Positions 1-35,496 of a stretch of 64,000 bases of DNA are shown here, piece by piece; positions within the stretch are counted from its first letter, which is position 1; the number at the start of each line of letters is the position of its first letter. The stretch spans positions 306,246 to 370,245 of the forward strand of contig JAQVIJ010000003.1 in NCBI GenBank assembly GCA_028695735.1. The letters are read 5' to 3'. The DNA is from Deltaproteobacteria bacterium. Lineage in GTDB: Bacteria > Desulfobacterota > Dissulfuribacteria > Dissulfuribacterales > DYLC01. The position numbers and the translations under genes were made by a program. A model generated the notes under the pieces. It saw only the letters and a program-made list of their open reading frames with translations, was not told where the DNA came from and searched no databases.

Positions 1-1906
1 CATTCGTGGTATCTGCAGGAGGTGTTGCAGCCGGCCTCTCTGTATTGGGCAACAGGGCCGCCTTCAGCCGTTTTTTCCAGACTTCATCGGGCATTCTGGT
101 CTTGCTGCGCCTGTCCACAGGTATGGTGAGAATAAAGGTGCTGCCCTTGCCCAGTTCACTTGAGACCGAGATATCGCCACCCAACATCTGAGCCAGTTTC
201 TGCGATATGCTCAGACCAAGCCCTGTCCCGCCGTATTTGCGTGTATATGAGCCGTCCACCTGTTTGAAGGGTTCAAAGATGAGCTTTTCATATCCCTTGG
301 GAATGCCTATGCCTGTGTCTATCACCGAAAATACGATATAATCCCTGTCTTTTGCTGTTTTCCCCGTGCATTTCAGGGTTATTTTGCCTTTTTCCGTGAA
401 TTTGACGGCATTTCCCAGGAGATTTGTCAGTATCTGGTTGAGCCTGCGCTGGTCTGTCACGATGGTTTCAGGGGCTTCGTCCATCTGTGTTTCAAAGGTG
501 AGGTCCTTTTTCTGGGCCAAAGGCGCTATGGAAAGCCCCAGTTTTTCTATGAGGTCCCTGGTTTTGACAGGAGTGAAGCGCAGCTCCTCCCTGCCTGATT
601 CGATGCGTGTGAGGTCCAGGATATCGTTTATGAGTTCCAGCAGGTTTTCGCCGTTTCTGAGCATGATATCCAGGTATTCCTTGTGGCGTTGGTCCTGCGT
701 GACCTGATAGTCGTCCAGCATGAGACGGGCCAGGCCTAAAATGGAGTTTAATGGTGTGCGCAGCTCATGGGACATGTTGGAGAGGAATATGGACTTCATG
801 CGATTGGCCTCTTCGGCCTCCTTGCTCTTTTTCTCCAGGGCGTCCCTCTGTGCTATCAGTTCTTCTGTCTGGGCCTGAATCTCCTCACTCTGCGCCAGCA
901 GTTCCTCGCTTTGCGCCTGTAATTCCTCGTTCTGGGCGTTCAATTGTTCGTTTTGCTGTTTCATGGTCTCGGAGAGCTTGACAATCTCCTGAGTGTGTAG
1001 GGCATTCTGAATGGCGAGGCAGGTCTGAGGCAGTAGGTTTTCCAGATAGGCCTTGTGCAGGGAGAGGTCGTTGAAGGAGCCCAGTTCCATGACCCCCAGC
1101 AGGGTGTCCTGCAGAAGCATGGGGATGCAGATGATGGAAAACGGATGCGCATCCAGAATGCCGGTCTTGAGCTTGAGGTGGTCAGCCGGCAGGTTCTCAA
1201 GCAGCAGGGTTTGTTTTGACTGGGCGGCCTGGCCTGGCAGCCCCTGACCCAGGCCGAACTCGGGCGGATTTGTGAACAGGGCATGGGCGGCCAGGGGGGT
1301 CAGCACACCGCGCTCCTGGTCCCATATATAAAACACACCTGTTGCAGAGGCAGTATTTTCAATGAGGACGGAAAGCAGCCGTTTTGCCATCTCTGAAAGA
1401 TCACCGGCCTCATGAAGAAGGCGAATGACCTTGTAGTGCATCTCCAGTGTCTGATAGTTGGCGGCCAGTTCCTGATTTTTTTGTTCAAGGGCGTTGGCCA
1501 TGGCCACATAGTGGCTGTCGTCCTGAATGGTCTGCACTATGCCGGCCAGTCGGCCGTGCTGGTCATAAAATGGAGAGGAGATGACTCGAGCCGGAAAGTT
1601 TTTTCCATTCCAGAGCTCGCATTCATAGAACAAAAGGAGATTTTTATTCTCGCCGCTGGCTATCTGTCTTATGGGGCAGTTTTCTGTATGACAAAAACCT
1701 GGTGCATGAGTGATCTCAAAGCATTTTTTGCCCAGACTTTCCGGATTGCTCATATCCACCATGGTATCCATGGCAGGGTTCTGAGTGAGCACATGACAGT
1801 TCATGTCTATCATGCGAATGGGTGTGGGAGCGCGCATGTAGAGCTGATAAACCGCCTCATAGGCGAGGATATGGTCATCATAGATTTGAAAAGGGCTGTT
1901 ATCCAT
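1..1906 (-). CDS. PAS/GAF sensor histidine kinase, 3' end cut by window edge
   Basis: Absent from the ORF track because it runs off the left edge. Hand translation from ATG at 1906 is stop-free to base 2. It shows a Cys-rich PAS-like N-terminus, a GAF-like middle, a Q/E-rich coiled coil, H-box [13 protein letters not shown], and G-boxes DTGIGI and [11 protein letters not shown]. The start overlaps the cheR stop by 8 nt. Confidence 0.85.
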
Positions 1907-2768
1907 GGTCAGCCGGTCCTTTTTTATAGATTTTTATGCCGTGTTTGACTGGTGCAAGGGATTCCAGAAGTTCATCCGGCATGCTTTCCGCTTTTCCCAG
2001 CACCAGATAACCGTCTGGGTTCAGGCATTCACAGAGTCTGCGCAGTGTATCGAGTTTCTGCTGGTAATCATAATAGATGAGCACATTTCTGCAATAGATG
2101 ATGTCATATTCGGTGAAGATGCCGATGGGCGGGGCAAGATGTTTCACTGTCGTGATATCGAAACACACAAACTGAGCCATGTCCTGAATCTCTGGAATGA
2201 GCTGCATGTGTTCAGGCATCCCTATTATGCGCTGAAAGGCGTCTGGATGTGTGGACAGGACATCTTCAATGGATTTGATGGGATAGACGGCTTTCATGGC
2301 CTTTTCTATGGCCATTTGGTCTATATCCGTGCCCAGCAGAGTGATATTCCATTTTTTTCTTTCTTTCTCCTCCATGCGCTGAAGGTATTCAAACAGCAGA
2401 ATGGCTGTGGAATACACCTCCTCTCCATAGGCGCAGGCAGTGCTCCAGATGCGGATGTTGCGGTCGTTCTGCTGGGCATGTCTTTCGAAGAGTGCAGGTA
2501 TGATCTGCTGTTCAAGGTAACTGAATATCTCGGTGTCTCGAAAGAATTCGCTGACCTTGATGGTAAGGGAGTGAAGAAGGGTCTGGTATTCCAGCGGGGT
2601 TTTCTGCAGATAGGCCTCATATTCGTCTATGTCGTATATGCCAAGGGCTGACATGCGCCGCAAAAGCCTTCTTTGAAAGGTTCCGGGATTGTAGTTTGAA
2701 AATCTGCAACCTGTGCGTTTTTCCACAAGCTGTTTCAGGTGATTGATACGTTCAGGCTCCATATTCAT
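1899..2768 (-). CDS. cheR: CheR-type protein-glutamate O-methyltransferase
   Basis: 289 aa. N-terminal CheR helical domain (FQRRLLRRM), SAM-MTase core IWSTACAYGEEVYS and IIYCRNVLIYY. Its start shares 1 nt with the upstream stop (TAATG). Confidence 0.85.
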   Translation of the reverse strand: MNMEPERINHLKQLVEKRTGCRFSNYNPGTFQRRLLRRMSALGIYDIDEYEAYLQKTPLEYQTLLHSLTIKVSEFFRDTEIFSYLEQQIIPALFERHAQQNDRNIRIWSTACAYGEEVYSTAILLFEYLQRMEEKERKKWNITLLGTDIDQMAIEKAMKAVYPIKSIEDVLSTHPDAFQRIIGMPEHMQLIPEIQDMAQFVCFDITTVKHLAPPIGIFTEYDIIYCRNVLIYYDYQQKLDTLRRLCECLNPDGYLVLGKAESMPDELLESLAPVKHGIKIYKKGPADHG

Positions 2769-4111
2769 TATAAATGTGTATGTATGATGCGCGGGACAGT
2801 GGCAAGGATGTCTTCTATGGCACGTTCGTCAAGGTCAAGGGCGGTGATGGCACTTTGGCTCAGTCCGTTGGTCATGGAGTCGTTGGAAAGCCCTATGCCG
2901 GCTATGTTGCAGATGTGATCAGCGACATGAATGATGCAGGGAAGGGGTGAGATTGTATTCATGTTTTCGGGCTCATGATGAAATGCTATTGCCTCCTCCA
3001 GTTCCGCAGGAAGCTGCCAGTTGTGGGCTATATACTGGCCTATGGCTGCGTGGTCCAGGCCGAATACGTCTTTTTCGGCCTGCACAAAGGATTCGTTTTT
3101 CAGCAGGACCCTGCTGGTAACCTGCGTGAACATGTCCATGCCGTAGCGTTCTATCACGATCTTGCCGATGTCATGCAGCAGACCGGCCAGATATGCCGTC
3201 TCCGGCTCCGTGCAGCCGGTTACCTTGGCTATTGCCTCGCTTATGCGGGCACAGGTTACGGAGTGATAGAAGAACGCCCCTTCTTCCATGTCATAGGTGG
3301 TGATACGCCTGTCATATATGTCTGCAAGACAGGTGTCCATAACGATTTTTTTAAATGTCCTCATGCCAAGGTATGCAACGGCCTGTGATAGGTTGTGCAC
3401 CTGTCTGGAAAGTCCGTAGTAGGCGGAATTGGCCTCCTTGAGCATATTGGCTGCCAGCACCTGGTCCTGGAGAATGAGTTGTTCCAATTCGCTGATGTTG
3501 GTGTCCTCGCCGTTGGTGAGTTGAAGGGCGCGAATGGCCACATTGGAACTGGGTTTCAGGTCTTCAGCATTCTGAAGAATGGAGGTGCGCAAGGTATTGG
3601 CATTCCATTGTTCGTCAATCTGCCGGCCCGCCTCTTCTGATGTGGGCATTCTGGATGTGCGGACATGAATCTGGCCGTTTCGCATGTACAGGCGCATTAC
3701 ACGCCCCAGATTGCCTGCCACGTGCTGGTATGAGACCTTTACATCCGCCTGTCTCAGACCCTCCATTACAGCGAGCAGATTCCGCTGACCTATTTTGAGG
3801 TCTGTCCCAGTATTTTTTGTCATGATGGATGCACCGCCTGCAATGGCCGTGGTTGCGGTTTTTCTCTCGCCTCCCAGTTCTTCAAAGGCATTCAGGAGGA
3901 ATGGAATGGCAGTAGTGGCATAGGCGGCTGGATGGGTCTGTTTCTTTTCAGCAGGGCCATCAGGCAGCAGGATGTGGCACATGCCGCCGATATGCCTGAC
4001 CGCATCGTATATGGCCACGCCGACACAGGAGCCGAGACAGGTCTCGAGGATGGTGTCTGGGTCTCCGGTGACCCGGCAGTCGCCTATGTGCACAAGTTGA
4101 ATCTCTTCCAT
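2768..4111 (-). CDS. CheD (chemoreceptor glutamine deamidase) domain fused to an HDOD domain
   Basis: 447 aa. Residues about 1-160 are CheD-like (LGSCVGVAIYD, GGMCHILLP). The C-terminal part is HDOD-like (LLHDIGKIV, AFHHEP). Confidence 0.8.
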   Translation of the reverse strand: MEEIQLVHIGDCRVTGDPDTILETCLGSCVGVAIYDAVRHIGGMCHILLPDGPAEKKQTHPAAYATTAIPFLLNAFEELGGERKTATTAIAGGASIMTKNTGTDLKIGQRNLLAVMEGLRQADVKVSYQHVAGNLGRVMRLYMRNGQIHVRTSRMPTSEEAGRQIDEQWNANTLRTSILQNAEDLKPSSNVAIRALQLTNGEDTNISELEQLILQDQVLAANMLKEANSAYYGLSRQVHNLSQAVAYLGMRTFKKIVMDTCLADIYDRRITTYDMEEGAFFYHSVTCARISEAIAKVTGCTEPETAYLAGLLHDIGKIVIERYGMDMFTQVTSRVLLKNESFVQAEKDVFGLDHAAIGQYIAHNWQLPAELEEAIAFHHEPENMNTISPLPCIIHVADHICNIAGIGLSNDSMTNGLSQSAITALDLDERAIEDILATVPRIIHTHL

Positions 4112-8181: not shown

Positions 8182-9537
8182 ATGGAGAGTGTCTGGAATA
8201 CTGTCAAGGGCCATCTGCGTTCCAGTATTTCTGCAAGCAGCTTCGAGGTCTGGATAGAACCTATACAGGTAGTTGACATAAAGGAAGACACCCTGGTACT
8301 TGGATGTCCCAACCGTTTTTTTGCCTCATGGGTGCAGGAACACTATCTGCCCCTGATCTCTCAATGCCCTGAGCTCGAAAATCGTATAATCCGTCTGACC
8401 TGTGAGTACAAAAAAGAAAACTCCGCTGAGGCATTTCTGAAACAGCCTGAAAATCAGGCACAGCAGGCTGTTTTGCCGGATTTCAACCCCAGAAAACCTG
8501 CGGCCCCGCGTTTCAGCAGGCATTACTCATTTGATGAATTTGTGATCGGAGAATGCAACAGATATGCCCATGATGCCTGTAAGGCCGTTGCAAGTGGTGA
8601 AATAAGCCAGGGTCGTATCCTGTATCTGCATTCGCCTTCAGGGCTGGGCAAAAGCCATCTGTCTCAGGCCACCGGCCAGTTTATCCTTGAAAACAGGCCG
8701 TCCATGCGTATATCCTACCTTTCCGCCAATGAATTCACCAATCAGGTGGTTCGGGCTGCAAAGGATGGGCAATTCGAGGGTTTTAAGCAGAAATACCAGC
8801 AGGAATGCGATATCTTGCTCCTGGAAGAGGTGCACTGCCTCTCCGGCAGACATCGCACACAGGCGGAGCTGGCGCTGATAATAGACACCCTCAGAGACAG
8901 CGGCAAGACCATTGTCATGACCGCCAATCAGCCTCCGGTGCGCCTTGCAAATCTGCATGAAGGACTTGGCTCCCGTCTCAACGCCGCCATAGTGGCCAAT
9001 ATAGATGAGCCCGATAAACAGACCAGATATAACATACTGGCGGTAAAGGCACTGAGAAACGGCCTCGTGGTGCCTGACATGGTGCTGGATTATCTGGCTG
9101 AACGCCTGTTCGGGGATGTCAGACGGCTGGAAGGGGCTGTGGTGGGGCTTCTGACCCGTACTGCCTTGACGAAACAGGAGGTCACTCTTCAACTGGCCCA
9201 GGAGATGGTTGGAGACATGGTGGGGCAACCACTTGACCTGAATATTCAGGCCATTCAGGAGATATTGTGCCGTTTCTATAAACTGACCACCGCTGAACTC
9301 ACCTCCAGGAGCAGGAAGAGAAGTGTATTGTGGCCCCGCCAGATCGGCATGTATCTGGCCAGACAATACACATGTGAATCCCTTGAGGAAATAGGCAAGG
9401 CATTCGGCAGGGACCATGCCACCGTCATACACGCGGTCAAACAGGTGCAACAGATCGTTGAAGACGGCGGAAGATGGAAGGGCGAGATAGATTTTCTTTC
9501 CACTCAACTGGAGAAGATGAGGTGGCGTGGAAAATGA
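8182..9537 (+). CDS. dnaA: chromosomal replication initiator DnaA
   Basis: 451 aa. Walker A SPSGLGKSHL, Walker B DILLLEEVH, C-terminal DNA-binding signature DHATVIHAVKQV. Confidence 0.95.
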   Translation: MESVWNTVKGHLRSSISASSFEVWIEPIQVVDIKEDTLVLGCPNRFFASWVQEHYLPLISQCPELENRIIRLTCEYKKENSAEAFLKQPENQAQQAVLPDFNPRKPAAPRFSRHYSFDEFVIGECNRYAHDACKAVASGEISQGRILYLHSPSGLGKSHLSQATGQFILENRPSMRISYLSANEFTNQVVRAAKDGQFEGFKQKYQQECDILLLEEVHCLSGRHRTQAELALIIDTLRDSGKTIVMTANQPPVRLANLHEGLGSRLNAAIVANIDEPDKQTRYNILAVKALRNGLVVPDMVLDYLAERLFGDVRRLEGAVVGLLTRTALTKQEVTLQLAQEMVGDMVGQPLDLNIQAIQEILCRFYKLTTAELTSRSRKRSVLWPRQIGMYLARQYTCESLEEIGKAFGRDHATVIHAVKQVQQIVEDGGRWKGEIDFLSTQLEKMRWRGK

Positions 9538-12680: not shown

Positions 12681-13403
12681 ATGGGATATCTCAAAAAACG
12701 AGTCAATCATTTGGTGGGAGAGGCCATTCACCGATACGGCCTGCTGCAAAACGGCGACCGCATTCTGGTGGCGGTCTCAGGCGGTTCTGACAGCCTGTTG
12801 TTGTTGTGGTTTTTGAACCACTGGCTGAAAAAGGCGCCCATTAACTACTCTCTTCTGCCAGTGTATCTGGACATGGGCTTTCATGCCCAGGCTCAAGGCC
12901 TGCTTCCTGACTTCTTTCGAAAAATGGGGCTTTCCTTTCACATGGAGGCCACGGATTACGCTGTCCTGGCGCATTCCTCGATAAATCGGGGTAAAAGCCC
13001 GTGTTTTCTCTGTGCCATGTGGCGCAGAAAGAGGCTCTTTCAATTGACTGCGGCCCTGGGCTGTAATAAACTGGCCCTGGGACACAATCAGGACGACCTC
13101 ATTGAGACATTCTTTTTAAACCTCTGCTACGCAGGTGAGATGAGCACAATGGTACCAAGGCAGGAGATGTTCAAGGGAAGGCTCACCATCATTCGGCCCC
13201 TGGCCCTGGTGGCCAAGGAGCGAATAGACCGCATGGCCCAGGAGCTTGGGCTTCCGGTCTCCTCGAACCCCTGCCCATCTGCCGGCAAGACTCGCCGTGA
13301 GGCCATAAAATCCATGCTTGCAACCCTTTACCGTACGGATCGCCGCATTCGGGACAATATCTTTCGAGGGCTGTCCAATGTGAGAAGGGAATATCTGTTA
13401 TGA
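12681..13403 (+). CDS. PP-loop ATPase, TtcA-like tRNA thiolation enzyme
   Basis: 240 aa. PP-loop VAVSGGSDSLLL, Cys motifs CFLC and PCPS. The stop overlaps the next start (ATGA). Confidence 0.75.
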   Translation: MGYLKKRVNHLVGEAIHRYGLLQNGDRILVAVSGGSDSLLLLWFLNHWLKKAPINYSLLPVYLDMGFHAQAQGLLPDFFRKMGLSFHMEATDYAVLAHSSINRGKSPCFLCAMWRRKRLFQLTAALGCNKLALGHNQDDLIETFFLNLCYAGEMSTMVPRQEMFKGRLTIIRPLALVAKERIDRMAQELGLPVSSNPCPSAGKTRREAIKSMLATLYRTDRRIRDNIFRGLSNVRREYLL

Positions 13404-15814
13404 AGGTTAAAGCGGCATTATCTCGGCTATATGGGGCTATTCTTTCAACCCTAACAATGTTTTTGGCTGTGGTCTTTCTGTGGCCTTCGCAGGTGCAGGG
13501 CCAGCGCACCTCCATTACAGTAGTCTTGGACGACAACTATCCCCCTTATGTCTTTAGAAATGAGCAGGGTAAATTGGTGGGTAAACTTGTGGATGAGTGG
13601 AGGCTTTGGCAGGAAAAGACCGGCATAAGGGTCATTCTGACAGGTATGGACTGGGCGGATTGTCTGCATGCCATGGCGTCAGGCAAGGCGGATGTGATAG
13701 ATACAGCCTTTCGCACTTCGGCCAGAGAGGAGGTTATGGATTTTCTGCCGCCCCATGCCGCCATACCCGTGGCCATCTATACCCATAAGGACATCACAGG
13801 CATTGCGGATCTGAGCAGCCTTCGAGGGTTTGTGGTGGGCGTCAAGGCAGGCGATGCCTGTGTGGACTGGCTCAATGACCATGGCATTCGTGACCTGCGT
13901 CCCTACTCCAGTTATCAGGCCATTCTAAATGAGGCCGTAAGAAAGAACATTCAGGTCTTTTGTATGGACGAACCGCCGGCCAATTTCCTGATTCATCGCC
14001 AAAAGGCCGAAAATGACCTGCGATACGCATTTCATCTCTACAACGGCGAGTTTCACAGGGCCGTCAAAAAGGGGGATAAAGAGCTGCTGGAGCTGGTGCA
14101 AAAAGGCTTTTCCAGCATTACTTCACAGGAATATGAGCGAATTCACAACAAATGGATGGGGAAACCCCTTACACGACCATTGGATACCAGGCTAATCCTG
14201 CTGATGTGGTTGGGGGCCGGCCTGGTGGTCATTCTGACCTTGACCGTGGTCATTTTGCGTTACCTGGTCATTCGGCGCACACAGCAGCTCACAGCCGTCA
14301 AAAATCACCTGGAGGCCACTTTAAATGCCATTCCTGACCTGCTCTTCGAGGTGGATATCTCAGGCCGTTTTTATGACTTTCACTCCTCCAACCCTCAGCT
14401 CTTGTTTTTGCCCAAGGAGGCCTTTCTGGGCAAGACCCTTGTGGATTGCCTTCCGCCTGAGGTGGCTGAGGCCGGCATGAAGGGCCTGCAGCAGGCATTG
14501 AGAGAGGGTAGGGCCACTGGAGAATACGCCCTTTCCATCAATGGTGAGCTCAAATGGTTTGAATTTACTGTGGTCCCCAAACAGATGCCTTTCAACGAGC
14601 AGCAGCATTTCATTTTCCTTTCCCGGGATGTCACAGCGCAGAAAGAGGCTGCATTAAAGGCACTCGAGGCCCAGAGGCAATCGCTTCAATCCCAGAAATT
14701 AGAGGCAGTAGGCAGGCTGGCAGGTGGTATCGCCCATGACCTCAACAACTTCCTGATGCCTGTGCTGGGCTATGCAGAGATGGGCATGCACGCCTTAAAC
14801 CCGTCCGACAAGCTGTATGGCTATTTTCAAGAGACCAAAAGGGCTGCTGAACGGGCTGCCCTGGTGGTGAAACAGGTCTTGACCTTTAGCAAAAAGGCAG
14901 AGGCCGTTTCAGAGAGAGTGCAATTAAATAGCGTGATAGAGGAGCTGAAAAACGGCCTCTTTCAACTCTTGGGCGAAGATATTCAACTACAACTAAATCT
15001 GGCGCCAGACCTCTTTTCAGTGTTTGTAAATAAAAATCAGATGGAGCAGGTGCTGATGAACCTGGTCTTAAATGCCAGGGATGCCATGCCTCAGGGTGGC
15101 GTCATCAACATCGAGACCAGCAATCAAGAGACTCATACTCCAGATGGAGTGGTTAAGCAGGTGGTCTTAAGGGTTAAAGACACTGGTTGCGGCATGAGTA
15201 AGGCGGTGCAGGAGAGGATATTCGACCCATTTTTCACCACAAAGGGCCCTGAACACGGAACCGGCCTCGGACTCTCCAATGTCTATGGCATCGTCAAACA
15301 GTATGGCGGCGAGATAGCCGTAGAAAGTGAAGTGGGCAAGGGAACCACCTTTATCATCACACTGCCTGCCATGGTGGAGGAGGAAAATGCCCTGAAAACA
15401 GCCGAAGCACTTCAGCAGGCTTCAGAGCCCTTAACGGCTCAAGGCCTGGAGGTCGTAGTAGTGGACGATGATGAGCATATAGTCAGCCTGGTCTCCATGG
15501 TGCTGCAGGCAGATGGGCATCGAGTTAGAGGCTTCAGTGACCCGGCGGAGTGTCTTCGTTTAATAGAGGATGAACGCCCCTCCATTGACATTCTGATCAC
15601 GGATGTTGCCATGCCAGGGATAAGCGGCCCGGAGCTAAGGGAGAGGCTGAAGTCCATCTATTCGGGCCTCAAGACCCTGTTTATCTCAGGCTACGGGCTT
15701 CCTGAGGAGGAGATGACGGTTTTGCAGGGCCAGGATGCAGCCATGCTTCAAAAGCCTTTTGGCATTCTGCAGCTGACTCATGCCATAGCGGAGCTTCAAA
15801 AGAAATCACAATAG
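13400..15814 (+). CDS. hybrid sensor histidine kinase (periplasmic SBP-like domain, TM, PAS, HisKA, HATPase, REC)
   Basis: 804 aa. H-box GGIAHDLNNFLMPVLGYAEM, N-box NLVLNARDAM, GTGLGLS, and receiver VVVVDDDEHI..ILITDVAMPGISG. Confidence 0.9.
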   Translation: MKVKAALSRLYGAILSTLTMFLAVVFLWPSQVQGQRTSITVVLDDNYPPYVFRNEQGKLVGKLVDEWRLWQEKTGIRVILTGMDWADCLHAMASGKADVIDTAFRTSAREEVMDFLPPHAAIPVAIYTHKDITGIADLSSLRGFVVGVKAGDACVDWLNDHGIRDLRPYSSYQAILNEAVRKNIQVFCMDEPPANFLIHRQKAENDLRYAFHLYNGEFHRAVKKGDKELLELVQKGFSSITSQEYERIHNKWMGKPLTRPLDTRLILLMWLGAGLVVILTLTVVILRYLVIRRTQQLTAVKNHLEATLNAIPDLLFEVDISGRFYDFHSSNPQLLFLPKEAFLGKTLVDCLPPEVAEAGMKGLQQALREGRATGEYALSINGELKWFEFTVVPKQMPFNEQQHFIFLSRDVTAQKEAALKALEAQRQSLQSQKLEAVGRLAGGIAHDLNNFLMPVLGYAEMGMHALNPSDKLYGYFQETKRAAERAALVVKQVLTFSKKAEAVSERVQLNSVIEELKNGLFQLLGEDIQLQLNLAPDLFSVFVNKNQMEQVLMNLVLNARDAMPQGGVINIETSNQETHTPDGVVKQVVLRVKDTGCGMSKAVQERIFDPFFTTKGPEHGTGLGLSNVYGIVKQYGGEIAVESEVGKGTTFIITLPAMVEEENALKTAEALQQASEPLTAQGLEVVVVDDDEHIVSLVSMVLQADGHRVRGFSDPAECLRLIEDERPSIDILITDVAMPGISGPELRERLKSIYSGLKTLFISGYGLPEEEMTVLQGQDAAMLQKPFGILQLTHAIAELQKKSQ

Positions 15815-15970: not shown

Positions 15971-18475
15971 TCACTCGCCCCAGATGCGAGTCTGGTTTCT
16001 GCCGGCATTTTTGGCCTGATAGAGGGCATCATCAGCACATTTGAGCAGTCCTGTGAGGTCGTGAATTTCGCCTGTAAGGCCGGCTACGCCCAATGAGATG
16101 GTAAATGGAATGCGGGCCTCGCCGCACACCACGCAGGCCTCTTCCATGGCCTTTCGCAGCCTTTCGGCCAGGATATAGGCATTTTGAGGCGAAACATGGC
16201 AGATGACAGCAAATTCCTCTCCGCCTAATCTGCCTGCAAAATCGGTCTCGCGCAGGGTTTGCCTGACTCGCTTGGCCAGCTCCCTTAAGACCTCATCGCC
16301 TATTGCATGGCCGAAGGAGTCGTTTATTTGCTTAAAGTGGTCTATATCGAACATGATGAGTGAAAGGGGTGTCTTATAGCGCAGGCTGGTCTGAGCCTCC
16401 TTTTCAGCCAGTTCGAGAAAATGCCTGCGATTGAACAGCCCTGTCAGCCCATCGGTGGTGGCCAGTTGCACGAGCTGCCTTTCAAACCTGAATTTATACA
16501 GGGCGTTGGTGATGATATCCGTGGCAAAGACCATGCGGCTTATGAAATCCTCTGTGAATTTCTGTGGAGTCATGTATTCAAAGGCATAGCAACCCGTTGT
16601 GATGGCGTTGTCAATGACCGGAATGAGCACCAATGCACTTATTTGCCCCTTTATCATGGCATCCCGCTCACAGTAGGCGCTTGCAGGCAACTGGTCTATG
16701 CTGGAGATATAGACGGCCTGCTGCCGAAAGAGCCGGTCTATGAACCAGCTACATCTTTTGACTGCCTCCAAACAGGAGACGCCGGCCTCATTTAAGCCAT
16801 TCCTGTGCCAGCTATAACTGGCGGTCAGAAACTCGTAGTCCTCAGAAAAGTGACAGAGGTAACAGCGGTCGGCCTGGAAAAACTGGGCTATCTGGCCGAT
16901 GGAGTAATGAATGGTCTCATCCATGCGCTTATGGTCTGTTGTGAGAAACAAGGTGGTGATATCCATGAGCATGGAATAGAAATTGGATGAGGCAAGAAGC
17001 TCACGCTTGTCTGCAACCTGTTCAGAGATATCCCTGAAGATTATGACATGATGCGGGGCATTCTGTCCTGTTGCAAAAAATGACTTGCAAGAGAGGTGGG
17101 CATCAATGGACCTGCCATCTTTTGTTTTCAATTCCGTCTCGCCGCTGTAACTGCCTGTCTGTGTGATTGCCTTATAAACCTGGCAGTCTTCTTGTGAAAT
17201 GGGATTGTCTCCGTGATAGTGCAAGAGATAATGGGGGTTTTGCCCTATGAGTTCCTCTCTGGAGTATTTGAGAATGAGGCAGGCGGCCTCATTTGCATCC
17301 TTTATATTCCAGTTTGAATCTACTATCAAAAGTCCATCCGGAATACTTGCAAACATGCTGGAGAGAAAACTGGAGATATCATTTTGTTTCCGCTGGAAAA
17401 CTACTAATAGATATGTCATGCTGCAAAGCAGTATGGTGATGCCTGACAGGTATAGAAGCATGGTTTTATAATGCGTGTGAAGCGCCATATATTCCATGTC
17501 TTTTGGTATGAATACCACGGTATAGGCCTGTAAATCATCTTGTATGCCTGTAATGGGCAGAAAGATGAGAGAGGAGAAGGCATTTGTAAAAGGGAGCTGA
17601 ATTGCAAATGGTTTGGATGAGGCGAGATTGTGTTGGAATTCCTCTATTCCTTTAGTCAGGGCGGCCCCATCTAATAGGTCTTTTAGGTAGATTTCCTGTC
17701 CATTTATGAAAACCTTCTGCTCTATGGGCATGAGCCATTGGGAAAGATGCTGAGATTCTTTATACCCTTTGAGTCCTTCTGAAAGGTGTTGAGCCATCAA
17801 ATGGTCTTTTTTGAAGAGTATGGCATAATCCGTATATCCCAGAATCTTATTGCTGTCTTCTTTTAGTTTAGCCAATATGGCATCATATGAGTAAACAAAT
17901 TCTGCTATGCCTATCTGCTTGTCCTCTAAAAGGATGGGAAAGATGTGATGAAGTGTTATGCCCTCGTTAGAGGTGTTGAAGCAGGTGAGGGGTTTTCTTT
18001 CCATGCTGGCCTGAAGGATTTCAGGCCGTTGTTCCGCAGGAGGGAGTAAAAAAACCGTCTTCTCAATGGCCAAAAGCGGCGTGAGTTGTGTGTCATGGAG
18101 ATACAGGCCATTTAAGCCCATGGGCTTGAGAAGGGCATGGGCAGGCCCCACTATATCCTCCAGGTTCTGCTGCAGCCCCTGTCTCAATGTCCATGGAGAT
18201 GAGGCAATTGCCTGCAAGACTTGAATGACCTCGGGTTGCAATACAAAAAGACGAAAGTGGATTTCACTGTCCTTGTACAGACTGGCCACCATGCTGTCAT
18301 GCAGACCCTTTTGAAGGGTGATATGTGCGGCTTCGTGTATTGCGACTCGATGCTCCAGCTCGTTTTTGAGATAGGTATAGCCCAAAAGAAAGATAGCCAG
18401 GCCTAATACTACAGCAAATAGAAGAGGGGATTTTTTAAGGATATCACTCAAGGATCTAATTTTTTTGTGTGTCAT
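15971..18475 (-). CDS. diguanylate cyclase with periplasmic sensor, PAS and GAF domains
   Basis: 834 aa. N-terminal TM plus a large extracytoplasmic region, a second TM, PAS, GAF-like, and GGDEF domain (RLGGEEFAVI). Confidence 0.9.
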   Translation of the reverse strand: MTHKKIRSLSDILKKSPLLFAVVLGLAIFLLGYTYLKNELEHRVAIHEAAHITLQKGLHDSMVASLYKDSEIHFRLFVLQPEVIQVLQAIASSPWTLRQGLQQNLEDIVGPAHALLKPMGLNGLYLHDTQLTPLLAIEKTVFLLPPAEQRPEILQASMERKPLTCFNTSNEGITLHHIFPILLEDKQIGIAEFVYSYDAILAKLKEDSNKILGYTDYAILFKKDHLMAQHLSEGLKGYKESQHLSQWLMPIEQKVFINGQEIYLKDLLDGAALTKGIEEFQHNLASSKPFAIQLPFTNAFSSLIFLPITGIQDDLQAYTVVFIPKDMEYMALHTHYKTMLLYLSGITILLCSMTYLLVVFQRKQNDISSFLSSMFASIPDGLLIVDSNWNIKDANEAACLILKYSREELIGQNPHYLLHYHGDNPISQEDCQVYKAITQTGSYSGETELKTKDGRSIDAHLSCKSFFATGQNAPHHVIIFRDISEQVADKRELLASSNFYSMLMDITTLFLTTDHKRMDETIHYSIGQIAQFFQADRCYLCHFSEDYEFLTASYSWHRNGLNEAGVSCLEAVKRCSWFIDRLFRQQAVYISSIDQLPASAYCERDAMIKGQISALVLIPVIDNAITTGCYAFEYMTPQKFTEDFISRMVFATDIITNALYKFRFERQLVQLATTDGLTGLFNRRHFLELAEKEAQTSLRYKTPLSLIMFDIDHFKQINDSFGHAIGDEVLRELAKRVRQTLRETDFAGRLGGEEFAVICHVSPQNAYILAERLRKAMEEACVVCGEARIPFTISLGVAGLTGEIHDLTGLLKCADDALYQAKNAGRNQTRIWGE

Positions 18476-18669: not shown

Positions 18670-20079
18670 GTGTGGTTTATTCCTAAATTCGGTAAGGCGG
18701 GGCAGATGGGACTAAAACGGGTCATAGGCATATTCTTTGATCAATACCCCAATGAGCGTCTGGACCTGTTTCAGGCCTTTCCAGCCCTTAAACAGATTTT
18801 GCAGCGCAGGAAACTGCATGCCTCCATTCGCACCATAGGCGATGTGGTCTTTACCTTCATCATCCTTTCGGGCCTTTTCGGGCCTCAAGACCCTCACGAG
18901 AACATAGTCATCTTCCTTTCCTGGGGCCTCTGGTGGCCCAGCATGGTCTTGAGCTGGTTTTTTGTGGGCCGCATGTGGTGTGGTTTCTGTCCGTTTCCAG
19001 GTCTGGGCCGCGTTCTTCAGCGTTTGGGCTGGGTGCGATATAGGCCTGTTCCCCGCTGGCTTCAGAAATACGGCATTTACTGGGCTGTTTTTCTCTTTGC
19101 GGTCATCATCTGGCTGGAGGAAAGCATGGGCATCAAGGAGTCTCCCCGGGCCACGGCCCTATTGATTTTGGCCATTCTGGGAGGCGCCACATTCTTTTCC
19201 ATTCTGTATCCACTTCAGGCCTGGTGCCGCTATCTCTGCCCCATGGGCCGCATAACAGGTGTGGCCTCCACCATGTCCATGACGGAGTTCAGGCCTGACC
19301 ACAGTATCTGCAAGGGCTGTACATCCTTTGCCTGTAAGAGGGGCAGGGACGGACAGCGCGGCTGCCCTGTATATTTAGGCGCCTTCGGAGTCACCAACAA
19401 CCTGGATTGTCTCATCTGCGGCAGATGCGTCTCGTTGTGTGACAAAAATTCACCCCGCATAAATTTCAGAAGCCCCTTTGCCGAACTACTCATCAGTAAA
19501 GGCCGCTATATCACCTGTTCCTACATCATTCCCCTGCTTCTCGCATCACAGCTGGCCCGTTTCATGGATGCCGGTATTCTAAAGGCATTTGAACCAGCCG
19601 ATTACTCAACGGTATATCGAATGGCCATGTTTTCAGGCCTCTTGCTCTTTTGGTTTGTCATGACCGTGATGTTTTTAAAATTGGGCGCCAAGGTCTTTGG
19701 TACCACCGAGGACGAGCTGTTCGGCAGATTCTCTCCCATGGTGCCGGTGTTTGTGCCCACCGCCTTTGCCGGAGAGCTGGTCTGCCGTTTGAACTATGCC
19801 CTGCACGAGGCCCAGTTCTTTTTTCCAACCCTGGGCAGGCAATTCGGCCTTGACCTCTCTTCCTGGGAATTTCATGTGCCTTTTTGGATATATCCGCTGC
19901 TGGACCTGTTTTTGGTGATAAGCAGTGTGGCTGCAGGCCTGCATGTGCTGCACCGGCTGGTTTATGGAGACTTTTATGGGCTGGTAAGCCCTTTAAGGCA
20001 CAGGCTCTGTGAACTGCTGGTCTATGGCATGGGAGCCACCTATATCATTTTGCTGCCCTTCTGGTATGCGCCCATCTAA
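18670..20079 (+). CDS. polytopic membrane 4Fe-4S-binding protein (NapH/MauN-like)
   Basis: 469 aa. Multiple TM helices, CGFCPFPG, and ferredoxin-type CLICGRCVSLC. The start is uncertain (alternative M at 18712). Confidence 0.6.
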   Translation: MWFIPKFGKAGQMGLKRVIGIFFDQYPNERLDLFQAFPALKQILQRRKLHASIRTIGDVVFTFIILSGLFGPQDPHENIVIFLSWGLWWPSMVLSWFFVGRMWCGFCPFPGLGRVLQRLGWVRYRPVPRWLQKYGIYWAVFLFAVIIWLEESMGIKESPRATALLILAILGGATFFSILYPLQAWCRYLCPMGRITGVASTMSMTEFRPDHSICKGCTSFACKRGRDGQRGCPVYLGAFGVTNNLDCLICGRCVSLCDKNSPRINFRSPFAELLISKGRYITCSYIIPLLLASQLARFMDAGILKAFEPADYSTVYRMAMFSGLLLFWFVMTVMFLKLGAKVFGTTEDELFGRFSPMVPVFVPTAFAGELVCRLNYALHEAQFFFPTLGRQFGLDLSSWEFHVPFWIYPLLDLFLVISSVAAGLHVLHRLVYGDFYGLVSPLRHRLCELLVYGMGATYIILLPFWYAPI

Positions 20080-27381: not shown

Positions 27382-29490
27382 TTATTGATTTTCTTCCAGT
27401 AATACCTTACGGCTCAGTTTGATCTTTCCTTGTTTGTCGATCTCTATCACCTTGACGCGCACGCTGTCTCCTTCCTTCAGGTAATCCTGCACGGAATTGA
27501 CCCGTTTGGTATCGATCTGCGAGATATGCAGAAGGCCGTCGGTACCGGGCATGATCTCAACGAAGGCCCCGAAGTCCATGATCTTCTTCACCACACCGTC
27601 ATAGATTACACCGACTTCAGGTTCAGCGGTAAGCTGTTTGATCATCTGTATGGCCTTCTGTGCGGAATCTCCGGATGATGCAAAGACCTTGACCTTGCCT
27701 GCATTGTCCACGTCCACCTTGGCGCCTGATGCAGCCACCACCGCCTTGATGTTCTTGCCGCCAGGGCCTATGAGGTCCTTTATCTTTTCCGGATTGATCT
27801 GTATGGAAAAGACCTTGGGGGCATATTGACTCAACTCGGCCTTGGGGGTCGAGATGACCTCTTTCATTTTACCGAGAATGAATTGACGGCCTTCTCTGGC
27901 CTGAAGCATGGCCTTTTTCATTATTTCAGGTGTGAGACCGGATATTTTGATGTCCATCTGAATGGATGTAACGCCCTCATGAGTGCCCACTACCTTGAAG
28001 TCCATGTCCCCGAGATGATCCTCGTCTCCAAGGATATCGGAAAGGATTACCACCTCGTCGCCTTCTTTTATGAGCCCCATGGCCACGCCGGCCACCATAT
28101 CGCGAATGGGCACGCCTGCGTCCATGAGGGCCAGAGTAGCGCCGCATACGGTTGCCATGGAGGAGGAGCCGTTGGATTCCATGACCTCGGATACAACGCG
28201 AATGGTATAGACAAAGTCCTCAGGAGGGGGAATGACTGCGGCTATGCCGCGCTCCGCCAGTGCGCCGTGTCCGATATCGCGTCTGGCAGGACCCCTGAGG
28301 GGTCTGACCTCGCCCACACAGAACGGAGGGAAATTATAATGCAGCATGAAGTGCTTGAAAAACTCGCCTCCGATGGCATCAATGCGCTGTTCATCGTCGG
28401 CGCTGCCCAGTGTGGCCACAGCCAGCACCTGTGTCTCTCCACGCGTGAAGACCGCTGATCCATGAGTGCGAGGCAGTTCTCCGATGGAACATGAAATAGG
28501 CCGTATCTCGTCGAATTTCCTGGCGTCTATGCGGCGTTTCTCATTGACTATCATGGAACGCATCATGTTTTTTTCCATCTCTTTGAGGGCGGTTTTGAAG
28601 ACCTTTTCATAACCGGTCAGCTCAGTTGCAAATCTGGCGAGGAACTCCTGTTCAATGGCGTCCTTCAGTTTGCCGCGCTGCTGTTTGTCTGGAGTGGTGA
28701 TGACCTGGCGCATGGCGGATTCGTATTCATTCAGGGCCGTTTGAAGTGGCTCCGGCAGTTCCTTTTCAGGGGCAAGATCGAACTTGGGTTTGCCAAGCTC
28801 TCTGGCCAGCTCTTCCTGAAGGGCTATCAGGGGCTGCATCTCCCTGTGTGCAAAGAAGATGGCCTCCAATATGTCTTCCTCAGGCAGAACAGCCGCTCCG
28901 CCCTCCACCATCACCACTGCATCCCTGCTGCCAGCTACGATGATATTCAATTCTGATTCCACAAGCTGGGTCTTTGTGGGGTTTATGACCAGCTGACCGT
29001 TCACCTTGCCCACACGAACGCCTGCAATAGGCCCGTTGAAGGGGATATCCGAGATGGAAAGGGCCGCCGAGGCCCCTGTTATGGCCAGGACATCAGGGTC
29101 TATCTCAGGGTCTATGGAAAGGACGGTGGCGATGATCTGCGTGTCGTGGTGATAGTTCGCCGGAAACAGGGGCCGAATGGGCCTGTCTATGCAGCGGGAG
29201 GTCAGTACCTCCTTTTCGCTCGGCCTGCCTATCTCTCTGCGGAAGTAACTGCCGGGTATCTTGCCTGCTGCATAAAACATCTCCTGATAGTCCACCATGA
29301 GCGGCAGAAAATCCATGTCTTCCCTGGGCTGTTTGGAGGCGACAGCAGTTACAACGACCACTGTATCCCCGGCCCGTACGATTACCGATCCATTTGCCTG
29401 TTTGGCTATCCGGCCTGTTTCCAGGACAATCGTCTGTCCTCCCAGCATCGCCTCTTTTCGAGTCATTTCCGTTACTCCATTCATTTGCAT
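27382..29490 (-). CDS. pnp: polyribonucleotide nucleotidyltransferase (PNPase)
   Basis: 702 aa. Two RNase PH domains, GDEDHLGDMDFKV, and KH plus S1 at the C-terminus. The true start may be M9 at 29466 (GGAG 9 nt upstream). Confidence 0.95.
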   Translation of the reverse strand: MQMNGVTEMTRKEAMLGGQTIVLETGRIAKQANGSVIVRAGDTVVVVTAVASKQPREDMDFLPLMVDYQEMFYAAGKIPGSYFRREIGRPSEKEVLTSRCIDRPIRPLFPANYHHDTQIIATVLSIDPEIDPDVLAITGASAALSISDIPFNGPIAGVRVGKVNGQLVINPTKTQLVESELNIIVAGSRDAVVMVEGGAAVLPEEDILEAIFFAHREMQPLIALQEELARELGKPKFDLAPEKELPEPLQTALNEYESAMRQVITTPDKQQRGKLKDAIEQEFLARFATELTGYEKVFKTALKEMEKNMMRSMIVNEKRRIDARKFDEIRPISCSIGELPRTHGSAVFTRGETQVLAVATLGSADDEQRIDAIGGEFFKHFMLHYNFPPFCVGEVRPLRGPARRDIGHGALAERGIAAVIPPPEDFVYTIRVVSEVMESNGSSSMATVCGATLALMDAGVPIRDMVAGVAMGLIKEGDEVVILSDILGDEDHLGDMDFKVVGTHEGVTSIQMDIKISGLTPEIMKKAMLQAREGRQFILGKMKEVISTPKAELSQYAPKVFSIQINPEKIKDLIGPGGKNIKAVVAASGAKVDVDNAGKVKVFASSGDSAQKAIQMIKQLTAEPEVGVIYDGVVKKIMDFGAFVEIMPGTDGLLHISQIDTKRVNSVQDYLKEGDSVRVKVIEIDKQGKIKLSRKVLLEENQ

Positions 29491-29493
29491 AGA

Positions 29494-29763
29494 TTATTTA
29501 CGCAGGCCCAATTCAGAGATAAGGGTTCTGTATCTGTCCATATCCTTGTTTCTGAGGTAGTCGAGCAGACTCTTTCTCTGCCCGACCAGCTTGAGCAGAC
29601 CTCTTCTGGAGCTGTGGTCCTTTTTGTGGGACTTAAAGTGCTCATTCAGACTGTTGATGCGGGCTGTCAAAAGCGCGACCTGCACCTCAGGCGAACCTGT
29701 GTCTGCATCGCTGCGTTTGTATTTCCCGATGAGTTCCTTTTTGAGTTCTGGTTGTAATGACAC
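29494..29763 (-). CDS. rpsO: 30S ribosomal protein S15
   Basis: 89 aa. [29 protein letters not shown]. Confidence 0.95.
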
Positions 29764-29788
29764 CTTGGTAAACCTCCTTTATTGTTTT

Positions 29789-30538
29789 TTATGATAATTG
29801 CCCTGAAAGCTCAGGGGTAATGTCCAACAGTTCTTGTGAAATCAGCAGCCCGTCCATGGTATTGGCGCTCACCGCCTTTCTGATGTCATCCATGGAAACA
29901 GCGTGGCCCATGTGGAATATCCCGTTTTGAGTGCGGTGAAGCCGTGCAAGGCATGCGCCGCATCCTAATTTTTGCCCGAAATCATGGGCCAGGGTCCTGA
30001 CATAGGTGCCCTTTGAGCAATGCAGCGAAAAACCCATTACGGGCGGTTCCCATGAGGTCACGACAAAGGAAAATATCTCGATTTCACGGGCGTTTTTTTG
30101 AATGAATATCCCTTTTCTGGCCAATTTATACAGGGGCTGTCCCTTGTGTTTCACAGCGGAAAAGACAGGAGGGACCTGAAACAACCTGCCGGTAAACGTA
30201 TCGGCGAGCTGTTGCAGGCTTTGCATGGTCAGGTTTGCTGGGACCGGTTGTTCTGAGACAATGTCGCCTTCCTTGTCGTAAGTTGTTGTCTCCATGCCGA
30301 GCTGCATCAGACCGTCATAGCGTTTGTGGCCCATCATAAGTTTTTCAGAGAGTTTTGTGGCCTTGCCTATGCACAGGGTCAATATCCCTGTGGCCAGTGG
30401 GTCCAGCGTGCCTGTATGCCCGATCTTTTTGATGTTCAGGAGCCTTCTGGTCAGCTTTATCACCTGGAAAGAGGTCATTCCAAGGGGTTTGTCTATTACG
30501 AGAACGCCGTTTAATTCCATATCATTGCCATGTGACAT
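29789..30538 (-). CDS. truB: tRNA pseudouridine55 synthase
   Basis: 249 aa. VIDKPLGMTSF and HTGTLDPLATGIL. Confidence 0.9.
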   Translation of the reverse strand: MSHGNDMELNGVLVIDKPLGMTSFQVIKLTRRLLNIKKIGHTGTLDPLATGILTLCIGKATKLSEKLMMGHKRYDGLMQLGMETTTYDKEGDIVSEQPVPANLTMQSLQQLADTFTGRLFQVPPVFSAVKHKGQPLYKLARKGIFIQKNAREIEIFSFVVTSWEPPVMGFSLHCSKGTYVRTLAHDFGQKLGCGACLARLHRTQNGIFHMGHAVSMDDIRKAVSANTMDGLLISQELLDITPELSGQLS

Positions 30539-31553
30539 CAGCCAGTTTGGCGAGTATCATGCCTTTGATCTCCGCTATGGGCCTGTTCATTCGAAACCCG
30601 GCTGCATGAAAATGACCCCCTCCTCCAAATGATGCCGCCAGCTCTGCCGCATTGAAATAGCTTTTGGAGCGCAGACTTACATTGCTCTGACCGTTACTGG
30701 TCTCTTTAATAAATACAGCCAGTTCCACTGTGTCTATGGACCTGAGACAGCCTACAAAATCGTGTGCGTCCTCTTCGTTGGCGCCGCTCTGCAGGAACAT
30801 CTCTGGCGACACATACATAAAACCCACCTTGCCGTTATATTCAAGCTCAAGGGTGTTCAGGGCCATGGCCAGCAGCCTGTGTCTGGATACAGGGTATTGC
30901 TGAAAAAGTTGTGATGAAATCCTGTGCGGATTTGCGCCAGCCCTCACCAATGCCGCAGCCATTTCCAGGGCATCCGCATTGGTATTGCTGTGACAGAAAG
31001 AACCGGTGTCAGTGACCACTCCTGTGTAGATATTGGTGGCTATCTCCGGAGTCAGGGGGCGGTTCATGGTCTCCAGCAGCCAGTAGACCAGGGCGGCCGT
31101 TGAAAATGCCTCTGTGTCGATATAGAGGAGGGGGGGCTTTGAAAATATGCCTGCAAATTCCGAAAGGGGTTCCGGCCTGGCTATGTGATGATCGAGCACG
31201 ACGGCTGTCTCAAAGAGATGCGCAGGTAAAAATGGAAGGATACCGGTGCGTTGCAGTTCATTGCAATCCAGCACAATCAGGATGGTGTCTTGTGGAAGGG
31301 TAGGGGAGCGACCGGAAGCCAGGTCTGAAGCGAATACAATGGAGCCGCTTTCCGGCAAAAAGAGCAGGTTCTGCGGCACAGGGTCGGTGAGACAGGGTAT
31401 GACGGTCTTACCCGCCTGAGTAAGGGCCAGATAAAGGGCCAGAAGCGACCCTATGGCGTCTCCGTCCGGTTTCTGATGCGCGGTGATCAGAAAATTCCGG
31501 GATTCCTCTATGAGTTTTGCTATCTTTTCAAGCTGCTGGTCGTTTTTTTTCAT
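30522..31553 (-). CDS. DHH/DHHA1 phosphoesterase (NrnA-like)
   Basis: 343 aa. HQKPDGDAIGS, a DHH-type motif, and C-terminal GGGGHFHAAG. Confidence 0.8.
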   Translation of the reverse strand: MKKNDQQLEKIAKLIEESRNFLITAHQKPDGDAIGSLLALYLALTQAGKTVIPCLTDPVPQNLLFLPESGSIVFASDLASGRSPTLPQDTILIVLDCNELQRTGILPFLPAHLFETAVVLDHHIARPEPLSEFAGIFSKPPLLYIDTEAFSTAALVYWLLETMNRPLTPEIATNIYTGVVTDTGSFCHSNTNADALEMAAALVRAGANPHRISSQLFQQYPVSRHRLLAMALNTLELEYNGKVGFMYVSPEMFLQSGANEEDAHDFVGCLRSIDTVELAVFIKETSNGQSNVSLRSKSYFNAAELAASFGGGGHFHAAGFRMNRPIAEIKGMILAKLADVTWQ

Positions 31554-31576
31554 ATATGATCACAGGGTAAAAAATA

Positions 31577-32005
31577 TCATTTGCCATTCTTGTCGATATA
31601 CCCGGCGCCGCTGGTTTTAACGCTGGGTGTCTCAAGGGTCTCCGCAAGCGTGGATGAATGGGGAATAGTCGCCAGGACATCCTCCAGATGCAGTTGCCGT
31701 TCAAGTGTGGTATCGAGCGAGAAATTCAGCTCGGGTATCTGTCTCATCTCTATACGGTGGGCCAACATGGTCCTGATGAAGCCCTTGGCCTGTTTGAGCC
31801 CTTTCATGACATCTTTTTTGTCCTGCTCGGAACCCGCAACCGCCACAAATATCTTTGCATACTTGAGATCAGTGGAGACCTCTACATTCATTACAGTAAC
31901 AAGTCCGTGTATGCGGGGATCCTTTATCTCATCAAGCAGCAGATACGCCAGTTCTTTCTTGATCATATCCGCTATTCTGTATGCCCTTGGAAATCTATGC
32001 GCCAT
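31577..32005 (-). CDS. rbfA: ribosome-binding factor A
   Basis: 142 aa. The position in the operon and RIADMIKKELAYLL support the call. Confidence 0.85.
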   Translation of the reverse strand: MAHRFPRAYRIADMIKKELAYLLLDEIKDPRIHGLVTVMNVEVSTDLKYAKIFVAVAGSEQDKKDVMKGLKQAKGFIRTMLAHRIEMRQIPELNFSLDTTLERQLHLEDVLATIPHSSTLAETLETPSVKTSGAGYIDKNGK

Positions 32006-32021
32006 TATATATACCTATAGT

Positions 32022-32336
32022 CTATCTATTGCTTCGAATTTCATGTTTACCCATGTTGATGATTTCCATCTCTGCATCCGTAAGGTCAACGATGCCGATG
32101 TTTTCAACGAAATCTATTATCTTGTTCAGTACCGAATCCAGTACGCTTGCGCTGTTTCCCACGACTGCAACACCAATCTCAGCGCTTTGCCATAGATCGT
32201 GATGGTCTGTCTCCGATGCAGCGGCTTCGAAACGGTTTTTTATCTGCTGTAGAATGCTCTTTATCACCCGCCGTTTTTCTTTTAATGAGTGATTTTCAGG
32301 TAAACTCAGGGTGATACGCAAGATTCCTGTAAACAT
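32022..32336 (-). CDS. DUF503 (YlxP-like) protein
   Basis: 104 aa. SLKEKRRVIKSI motif, and the canonical position between infB and rbfA. Confidence 0.7.
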   Translation of the reverse strand: MFTGILRITLSLPENHSLKEKRRVIKSILQQIKNRFEAAASETDHHDLWQSAEIGVAVVGNSASVLDSVLNKIIDFVENIGIVDLTDAEMEIINMGKHEIRSNR

Positions 32337-32346
32337 CAGGCTCTAA

Positions 32347-35490: not shown

Positions 35491-35496
35491 ATTTTA

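Follow-up and report, generated by a model that had tools for sequence, protein, structure and literature searches.

A predicted methyl-accepting signalling helix in a PAS-GAF hybrid histidine kinase encoded together with CheR and a CheD-HDOD fusion

A stretch of 64,000 nucleotides from a deltaproteobacterium of the order Dissulfuribacterales (assembly GCA_028695735.1, contig JAQVIJ010000003.1, forward-strand positions 306,246 to 370,245; "the window" in this text) begins with an operon that raises a question. Its genes code, in this order, for a CheD-HDOD fusion protein, a CheR-type methyltransferase, a hybrid histidine kinase and a REC-HisKA-HATPase protein of 408 residues. No gene for a methyl-accepting chemotaxis protein (MCP), CheA, CheW or CheB was found within 20 kb of this operon. 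What, then, do the two enzymes act on? The kinase, product of the third gene, carries four consecutive heptads with a Glu-Glu pair each (EE heptads) ahead of its H-box. A preliminary description, made from the DNA letters, had likened them to the methylation sites of chemoreceptors. This reading is supported by the cheR and cheD genes of the operon, by the conservation of the heptads, by a genome-wide association of such heptads with cheR, and by the precedent of RsbK in the same kinase family. We consider it fairly probable that the EE heptads accept methyl groups, within a methylatable signalling helix (S-helix) of the RsbK type. The coordinates of all features are collected in Table 1.

The heptads repeat with an exact seven-residue period, and each has Ala at +4 and Gln at +5, counted from the first Glu (four of four). 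This had been described before and is confirmed by translation and by shuffling. Shuffling the whole protein 20,000 times, and the coil residues alone another 20,000 times, gave at most two in-phase EE[LIVM] motifs in a run and never four. The preliminary description had located the same block, but its coordinates (848-934) are off by one codon, the actual ones being 845-931. According to the minus-strand translation, the block ends 26 residues N-terminal of the phospho-accepting histidine (His380). The distance to His380 from the second Glu of each pair is 52 (E328), 45 (E335), 38 (E342) and 31 residues (E349), so that all four are at His-(7n+3) and share one face. In the underlying DNA, no more than a decayed repeat is left (21 nt, 3.2 copies, 74% match); thus, the periodicity is kept up at the protein level. 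The heptad preceding the block (NEQLNAQ) is degenerate, but in-phase and carries an E-Q pair. Such in-phase EQ pairs also occur at the array edges of other CheR-linked kinases, and this one could be a fifth site, if deamidated. In Pfam searches, the kinase had no MCPsignal match at E<0.01 and no CheB or CheR domain.

An AlphaFold2 model of the kinase was built from an alignment with 31 homologues. It has a single unbroken helix between the end of the GAF domain and the first DHp helix (predicted local distance difference test, pLDDT, 88-96 overall and 94-96 in the heptads). A hydrophobic seam recurs by sevens (I308, M315, L322, L329, L336, I343, L350, L357, A364 ... M378). It is accompanied by a column of small polar residues (S312, N319, N326, S333, S340, T347 ... 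N368), which continues to the DHp-core residues L375 and L382. Extending the phase of the DHp core (L375, M378, L382) into the helix, we infer a register in which L/I is at d, S/T/N at a, the EE pair at b/c, Ala at f and Gln at g. The b/c positions are exposed, and in either possible register the EE pairs are outside the coiled-coil core. The block has the features of an S-helix: it lies between GAF and DHp, forms one continuous helix, and has a polar a column (S/T/N) and one Leu seam. A generic S-helix, however, needs no EE pairs.

Conservation was assessed in 34 kinase orthologues with 40-95% identity. With a mean column identity of 0.88, the heptad block is the best-conserved part of the protein, ahead of the catalytic domains (HisKA 0.78, HATPase 0.71) and of the PAS (0.58) and GAF (0.54) domains. 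Both Glu are invariant in three of the four heptads; in heptad 1, either D or E is found at the first Glu position. The L/I after the EE pair and the Gln at position 6 are also invariant. Position 5 admits A/S(/G) and position 7 S/T/A, and position 4 varies freely. Conservation thus falls on the EE and AQ positions that the preliminary description had singled out.

The genes of the operon are tightly packed. The cheR stop and the kinase start overlap by 8 nt (window 1899-1906, ATGGATAA), and the cheD-HDOD stop and the cheR start share one base (TAATG, window 2766-2770). As judged by these junctions, cheD-HDOD, cheR and the kinase gene are translationally coupled. The closest named relative of the kinase comes from a Dissulfuribacterales metagenome-assembled genome (MAG). 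The four-gene module is also present in Thermosulfuriphilus ammonigenes and on two MAG/metagenome contigs, where the kinases are 47-49% identical and the flanks wholly unrelated. Because the module is kept amid different flanking genes, the linkage is conserved and not accidental. The order CheD-HDOD, CheR, kinase was likewise encountered at two loci of the genome scan described below (L011 and L012, from Desulfobulbia and Syntrophobacteraceae), and kinase identity among the lineages sharing the operon goes down to 35-50%. The second kinase of the operon (REC-HisKA-HATPase) was considered as a methylation substrate and rejected, as it is devoid of an EE array. A C-terminal pentapeptide for tethering CheR was also rejected: the kinase ends in SYWLNPEQ, which is unlike NWETF.

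The CheR of the window matches Salmonella CheR (1AF7) with an E-value of 1e-28 and keeps the basic RRLLRR patch in helix alpha2. Its nearest relatives are CheRs encoded upstream of GAF kinases (among the compared loci L006-L012, L023, L034 and L037), and CheB-CheR fusion proteins are among its database matches (about 35-37% identity). Its bit scores are 113 with the CheB-CheR fusion from Nostoc, 102 with Salmonella CheR and 50-95 with RsbM-type CheRs. On these bit scores, it was rejected as an RsbM orthologue and appears to represent another lineage, which points to repeated recruitment of CheRs to such helices. CheD is described as a glutamine deamidase and glutamate methylesterase (PMC3447774, PMC7289035). 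Cys29 and His46 of the CheD domain align with the catalytic Cys and His of Thermotoga maritima CheD (2F9Z). Cys29 is invariant in six of six aligned sequences, and His46 in the five intact orthologues (the sixth, from L011, is a frame-disturbed read). The HDOD part (window 2768-3580) also matches the Pfam HD domain (2e-14). Six orthologues all retain H283, H313-D314, H354, H378-H379 and H395, so that this domain may bind metal and be catalytically competent instead of being a degenerate output domain. A literature search returned no paper that links HDOD with CheD or CheR.

Is the coupling between EE heptads and cheR a peculiarity of this locus? One genome per GTDB species was scanned with an alignment of coil and HisKA as query, and the best 80 loci, from more than 10 phyla, were taken. 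They were picked solely by similarity of coil and H-box, while cheR, cheB and cheD were found with home-made profiles; 72 loci were evaluable. Among the 25 kinases with at least three in-phase EE[LIVM] heptads before the H-box, 23 have cheR nearby and two do not. Among the 47 with fewer, the figures are 8 and 39 (Fisher p = 4e-10; 5e-8 when eleven Streptomyces/Kitasatospora orthologues are collapsed). The positive class includes Bacillota, Bacteroidota, Cyanobacteria, Nitrospirota, Verrucomicrobiota, alpha-, beta- and gamma-proteobacteria, Desulfobacterota and others. The cheR start is usually -43 to +73 bp from the kinase stop, a catalytic-only cheB follows cheR in about 20 loci, and the next gene codes for a REC-HisKA-HATPase protein in 9 of 10 loci checked, as it does in the window.

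The CheR-linked kinases are built alike. GAF is present in 27 of 28 and REC in 26 of 28, and the core of GAF, long helix, HisKA, HATPase_c and C-terminal REC is common to the window kinase and 27 of the 28. Their sensors vary (CHASE3 in 13, dCache in 5, 4HB in 4 and PAS in 3). GAF is also found in 16 of 27 CheR-less kinases, yet EE arrays are absent from these. In the CheR-linked kinases, 111 of 123 EE[LIVM] motifs have their second Glu at His-(7n+3); the arrays thus enter the DHp without a stutter, and the candidate sites face the same side. Of the heptad pattern, only EE-L is kept throughout this wider family, whereas A-Q marks a subfamily that includes the Bacillaceae kinases with cheR only. 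Two other hybrid kinases encoded in the window serve as internal negative controls: they have short linkers, no EE motif and no cheR.

The precedent comes from Bacillus cereus. The S-helix of its kinase RsbK (CHASE3-HAMP-GAF-S-helix-HK-REC) is methylated by the CheR-type enzyme RsbM, which is encoded in the same operon (PMC4574943, PMC9912610; see also PMC12848376, PMC10950880). Methylation by RsbM was demonstrated in vitro with 14C-labelled S-adenosylmethionine (SAM) and is needed to hold the kinase off; the authors also noted 127 RsbK-like kinases in 10 phyla (PMC4574943). The association of RsbK with CheR in genomes was noted by de Been et al., as cited in a passage of PMC12848376. A literature search on methyl-accepting histidine kinases and on Glu methylation of two-component kinases returned nothing relevant besides the RsbK work.

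The window locus shares with RsbK/RsbM a hybrid kinase with GAF, S-helix, HisKA, HATPase and REC, and a co-operonic CheR-type methyltransferase. RsbK-like relatives from Bacillales have an S-helix made of SEELQ[AS]Q heptads, in which the second Glu keeps the same phase to the phospho-accepting histidine as in the window. In 104 of 115 Bacillales homologues (the B. cereus RsbK sequence itself is not among them), both His-66 and His-59 are occupied by the second Glu of an EEL heptad. In RsbK, the variants E439A and E446A are reportedly defective, and H505 is said to be the phospho-accepting histidine; both are attributed to work of Chen et al. in 2012. The spacing in Bacillales agrees with these positions. 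It also agrees with the rule that MCPs are methylated on the second Glu (PMC1079850). A Mesobacillus kinase with near-identical heptads is part of a kinase-CheR module with a REC-PP2C gene nearby, resembling RsbK/RsbM/RsbY. Many RsbK-like hybrid kinases are called "chemotaxis family, sensor kinase CheA" in JGI/KEGG-style annotation (P0052, P0055, P0058 and others). This label is misleading, because these proteins have HisKA and no CheA domains.

RsbK has a membrane-bound CHASE3-HAMP sensor, whereas the window kinase is a cytoplasmic PAS-GAF protein with neither CHASE3 nor HAMP according to Pfam. The output of RsbK is the REC-PP2C phosphatase RsbY and sigma B, while the partner of the window kinase is a REC-HisKA-HATPase kinase. 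In the RsbK operon, the kinase gene precedes the methyltransferase gene and a cognate esterase is lacking; in the window, the order is cheD-HDOD, cheR, kinase. The PAS sensor and the REC-kinase partner place the window kinase in the broader family and not among the RsbK orthologues. Judged from its sequence, the locus is a variant on RsbK/RsbM, with a cytoplasmic PAS-GAF sensor, a CheD-HDOD partner, another CheR lineage and a REC-kinase output.

Other known systems are related in part. In MCPs, the methylation consensus is EExxA[S/T], with the second Glu being methylated (PMC1079850). The window helix resembles MCP helices in its Glu-Glu pairs, the seven-residue spacing, the exposed coiled-coil face and the Ala three residues after the second Glu. 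The two also have their candidate modifying enzymes, CheR and CheD, in common (PMC1079850, PMC7289035). In contrast to MCPs, where the helix is part of a hairpin, the window helix enters the DHp directly. It has a hydrophobic residue after the EE pair, which in MCP sites stands before the pair, and it acts on its own kinase domain, while an MCP acts on CheA.

Also related are the widespread operons of CHASE3/dCache/4HB-GAF hybrid kinases. An example is Pseudomonas BmsA, a CHASE3/GAF kinase with adjacent CheR, CheB and hybrid kinase (PMC8175716). These share with the window the kinase core, EE-L arrays, an adjacent CheR and a REC-HisKA-HATPase protein. They differ in having a catalytic-only CheB or no eraser, in the position of cheR 3' of the kinase gene, and in heptads of the type EELxxQ/T-N instead of EExxAQ[S/T]. 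Finally, the preliminary description had mentioned runs resembling EELQSTNEEL in CheB/CheR-fusion kinases. Such runs are real: a Nostoc CheB-CheR fusion of 1424 residues (L037:12984-17255, minus strand) carries the EE-L heptads NEEILSSNEELQSTNEELETAKEEIQATNEEL in cis. CheB-CheR-PAS fusions combine enzymes and heptads in one polypeptide, while the window has separate genes. A literature search returned no experimental work on the heptads of CheB-CheR fusion proteins. The gene for the Nostoc fusion adjoins that of a 2162-residue poly-HAMP kinase on the opposite strand.

How might such a system operate? Using SAM, the co-operonic CheR would methylate the second Glu of the pairs and so remove up to four negative charges per chain and eight per dimer. 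With the charge lost, a coiled coil that is weak by design may change in stability or packing, or the C-terminal REC domains may dock on it differently, as has been suggested for RsbK. Kinase or phosphotransfer output toward the downstream REC-kinase would thereby be reset. The CheD domain may provide the reverse reaction (ester hydrolysis, perhaps also deamidation), or it may merely bind the same helix. CheD-HDOD would fill the place that a catalytic-only CheB has in most related operons, and we speculate that HDOD may couple CheD activity to another input. In this way, a soluble two-component kinase would have its own loop for adaptation or set-point control in the manner of chemotaxis, operating without MCP, CheA and CheW.

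In its most specific form, which we put forward tentatively, this would be a self-contained loop that has no need of MCP, CheA, CheW or CheB. In this loop, CheR would write and CheD-HDOD erase methyl groups on four Glu, and erasure would be tied, through HDOD, to kinase output or a second messenger. CheD would then be a dedicated demethylase of a non-chemoreceptor substrate, and in-phase EE-L heptads at His-(7n+3) would be a general signature by which methyl-accepting histidine kinases of many phyla can be recognised.

Several observations weigh against methylation of the heptads, or against parts of the proposed loop. The MCP consensus is matched only as EExxA (four of four heptads): Gln replaces S/T, as the preliminary description had conceded, and the Ser/Thr is displaced by one residue. 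The E/Q exchange which is typical of MCP sites was never seen in the four core pairs of the orthologues, and this argues against a role of deamidation. The association counts from the 72 loci are not phylogenetically independent. A GAF kinase from Firmicutes (UBA4053; L015:2738-5068) has five in-phase EE heptads, but its 12.8-kb contig has no cheR. Conversely, eight cheR-linked kinases carry fewer than three strict heptads. A 4HB-HAMP-GAF kinase from Paludibacter, which is encoded directly after cheR (L034:7871-11212), has single-Glu heptads (TELQEQK SELKAQS ... RELEIQK), in which the first Glu of the pair is lost and the Glu adjoining Leu is retained.

The equivalence of His-66 and His-59 with E439 and E446 of RsbK is likewise presumed. 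On the side of the enzymes, RsbM works without a cognate esterase (PMC4574943), so that an eraser is not obligatory. The position of Thr21 in T. maritima CheD is taken by Glu23 in the window protein, with Thr24 adjacent (Thr/Ser is found one position later in the alignment). In addition, about 10 full-length, more distant CheD-HDOD fusions (about 30% identity) exist, none of them beside heptad kinases; they are located near flagellar or CheB genes or stand alone. They come from a metagenome scan with HDOD-motif patterns, which returned 80 loci, mostly of HDOD-only proteins. The fusion is thus broader than the module described here.

The most serious contender, though in our view an unlikely one, is that the heptads are purely structural. 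They would form an S-helix, a charged coiled coil with weak packing, that relays GAF movement to the DHp, while CheR and CheD-HDOD have a different substrate, for example MCPs whose genes are elsewhere. By position and shape, the block is indeed a canonical S-helix. A few kinases, such as that from L015, have EE-rich heptads without a nearby cheR, and the imperfect match to the MCP consensus (PMC1079850) also fits. Thermosulfuriphilus is flagellated, so that MCPs are probable in at least that relative. A structural role, however, leaves unexplained why cheR and kinase are coupled in a conserved module with no MCP gene nearby, why EE arrays adjoin cheR across about ten phyla, and why the block is conserved above the catalytic domains. 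Moreover, a helix of this kind was shown by experiment, in RsbK/RsbM, to be the substrate of a CheR-type enzyme (PMC4574943).

Another possibility accepts methylation of the heptads and concerns the role of CheD-HDOD. Instead of erasing methyl groups, this protein would regulate by binding, with the helix or REC as its docking site. Methylation would in this case provide a set-point that is slow or constitutive, the role suggested for it in RsbK/RsbM. In Bacillus subtilis, binding of CheD to receptors matters more than its catalysis (PMC7289035), so that a binding role is a live alternative. RsbM, which has no cognate esterase (PMC4574943), and the lack of conservation in register of the Thr21 position point the same way. 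The retention of Cys29 and His46 in the intact orthologues speaks against it, and the catalytic CheB at the equivalent place in most sister operons suggests that an eraser is usually needed. On balance, we regard a CheD-HDOD that merely binds as rather improbable.

It had also been proposed that the glutamines of the AQ positions are CheD substrates, i.e., that CheD deamidates these invariant residues to Glu. All 34 orthologues have Gln at position 6, and the operon encodes a CheD domain with catalytic Cys and His. Nevertheless, this proposal does not hold up well and is very unlikely to be correct. Known deamidation targets of CheD and CheB are Gln within the E/Q-E/Q pair (PMC7289035), and not two residues ahead of it. 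The frequency of Gln does not track CheD: Gln is the commonest residue at this position (about 50%) in kinases whose operons contain cheR without cheD or cheB, and it accounts for 44% in cheB-linked ones. Its placement at g in the inferred register, beside the core, fits a role in packing, and the core pairs show no E/Q exchange. That the heptads arose by chance or are of low complexity and lack a specific function, for which only the weak 21-nt tandem repeat in the DNA could be cited, is refuted for practical purposes by their absence from 40,000 shuffles, their invariance across orthologues of 40-95% identity and their conserved phase to the phospho-accepting histidine.

Elsewhere in the window, dnaA (8182-9537, plus strand) was identified from the gene table of a matching contig (L001). 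With dnaA close by, the module is a few kb from the probable replication origin region. A housekeeping stretch on the minus strand (27382-36750) comprises nusA (35497-36750), infB (32347-35490) and pnp (27382-29490). An open reading frame of 469 codons (18670-20079, plus strand) had no Pfam match at E<1e-5.

Table 1. Features of the kinase, its operon and the remaining window (positions refer to the window; residue numbers to the respective protein).
Feature	Position	Strand	Remarks
Hybrid kinase	1-1906	-	ATG at 1906-1904; gene cut by the window edge; full protein of 935 residues (from a longer copy of the contig)
Kinase domains			Pfam; PAS 32-129, GAF 169-285, S-helix, HisKA 371-438, HATPase_c 484-598; two REC domains outside the window
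Continuous signalling helix	713-1066	-	residues 281-398; from the GAF end via the heptads to DHp helix 1; AlphaFold2
Phospho-accepting His380 codon	767-769	-	H-box SHELRTP; HisKA match, invariant in orthologues
Four EE heptads	845-931	-	residues 326-354; candidate methyl-accepting E328, E335, E342, E349
Degenerate in-phase heptad NEQLNAQ	932-952	-	residues 319-325; carries an E-Q pair; poorly conserved
CheR methyltransferase	1899-2768	-	289 residues; CheR_N and CheR SAM-binding domain; Pfam 6e-38
CheD-HDOD fusion	2768-4111	-	447 residues; Pfam
SBP_bac_3-PAS hybrid kinase	13400-15814	+	
PAS-GGDEF protein	15971-18475	-	
dCache-PAS-PAS hybrid kinase	50153-53176	+	

Reversible Glu methylation is the textbook memory of chemoreceptors and, outside B. 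cereus RsbK, has hardly been considered for two-component kinases. A methylatable S-helix in a kinase has already been published for RsbK, although it is little known. What is new here is the CheD-HDOD arm and a simple predictive signature. Our survey suggests that there is a large, phylogenetically wide family of GAF hybrid kinases with a methyl-accepting helix, on which CheR is accompanied by CheB, by CheD-HDOD or by no eraser at all. If this is true, a sequence rule would predict which kinases are methylated. The PAS-GAF kinase and its two enzymes would then be a compact, soluble model for how charge neutralisation tunes a DHp, and CheD would gain a new class of substrate and a new partner domain.

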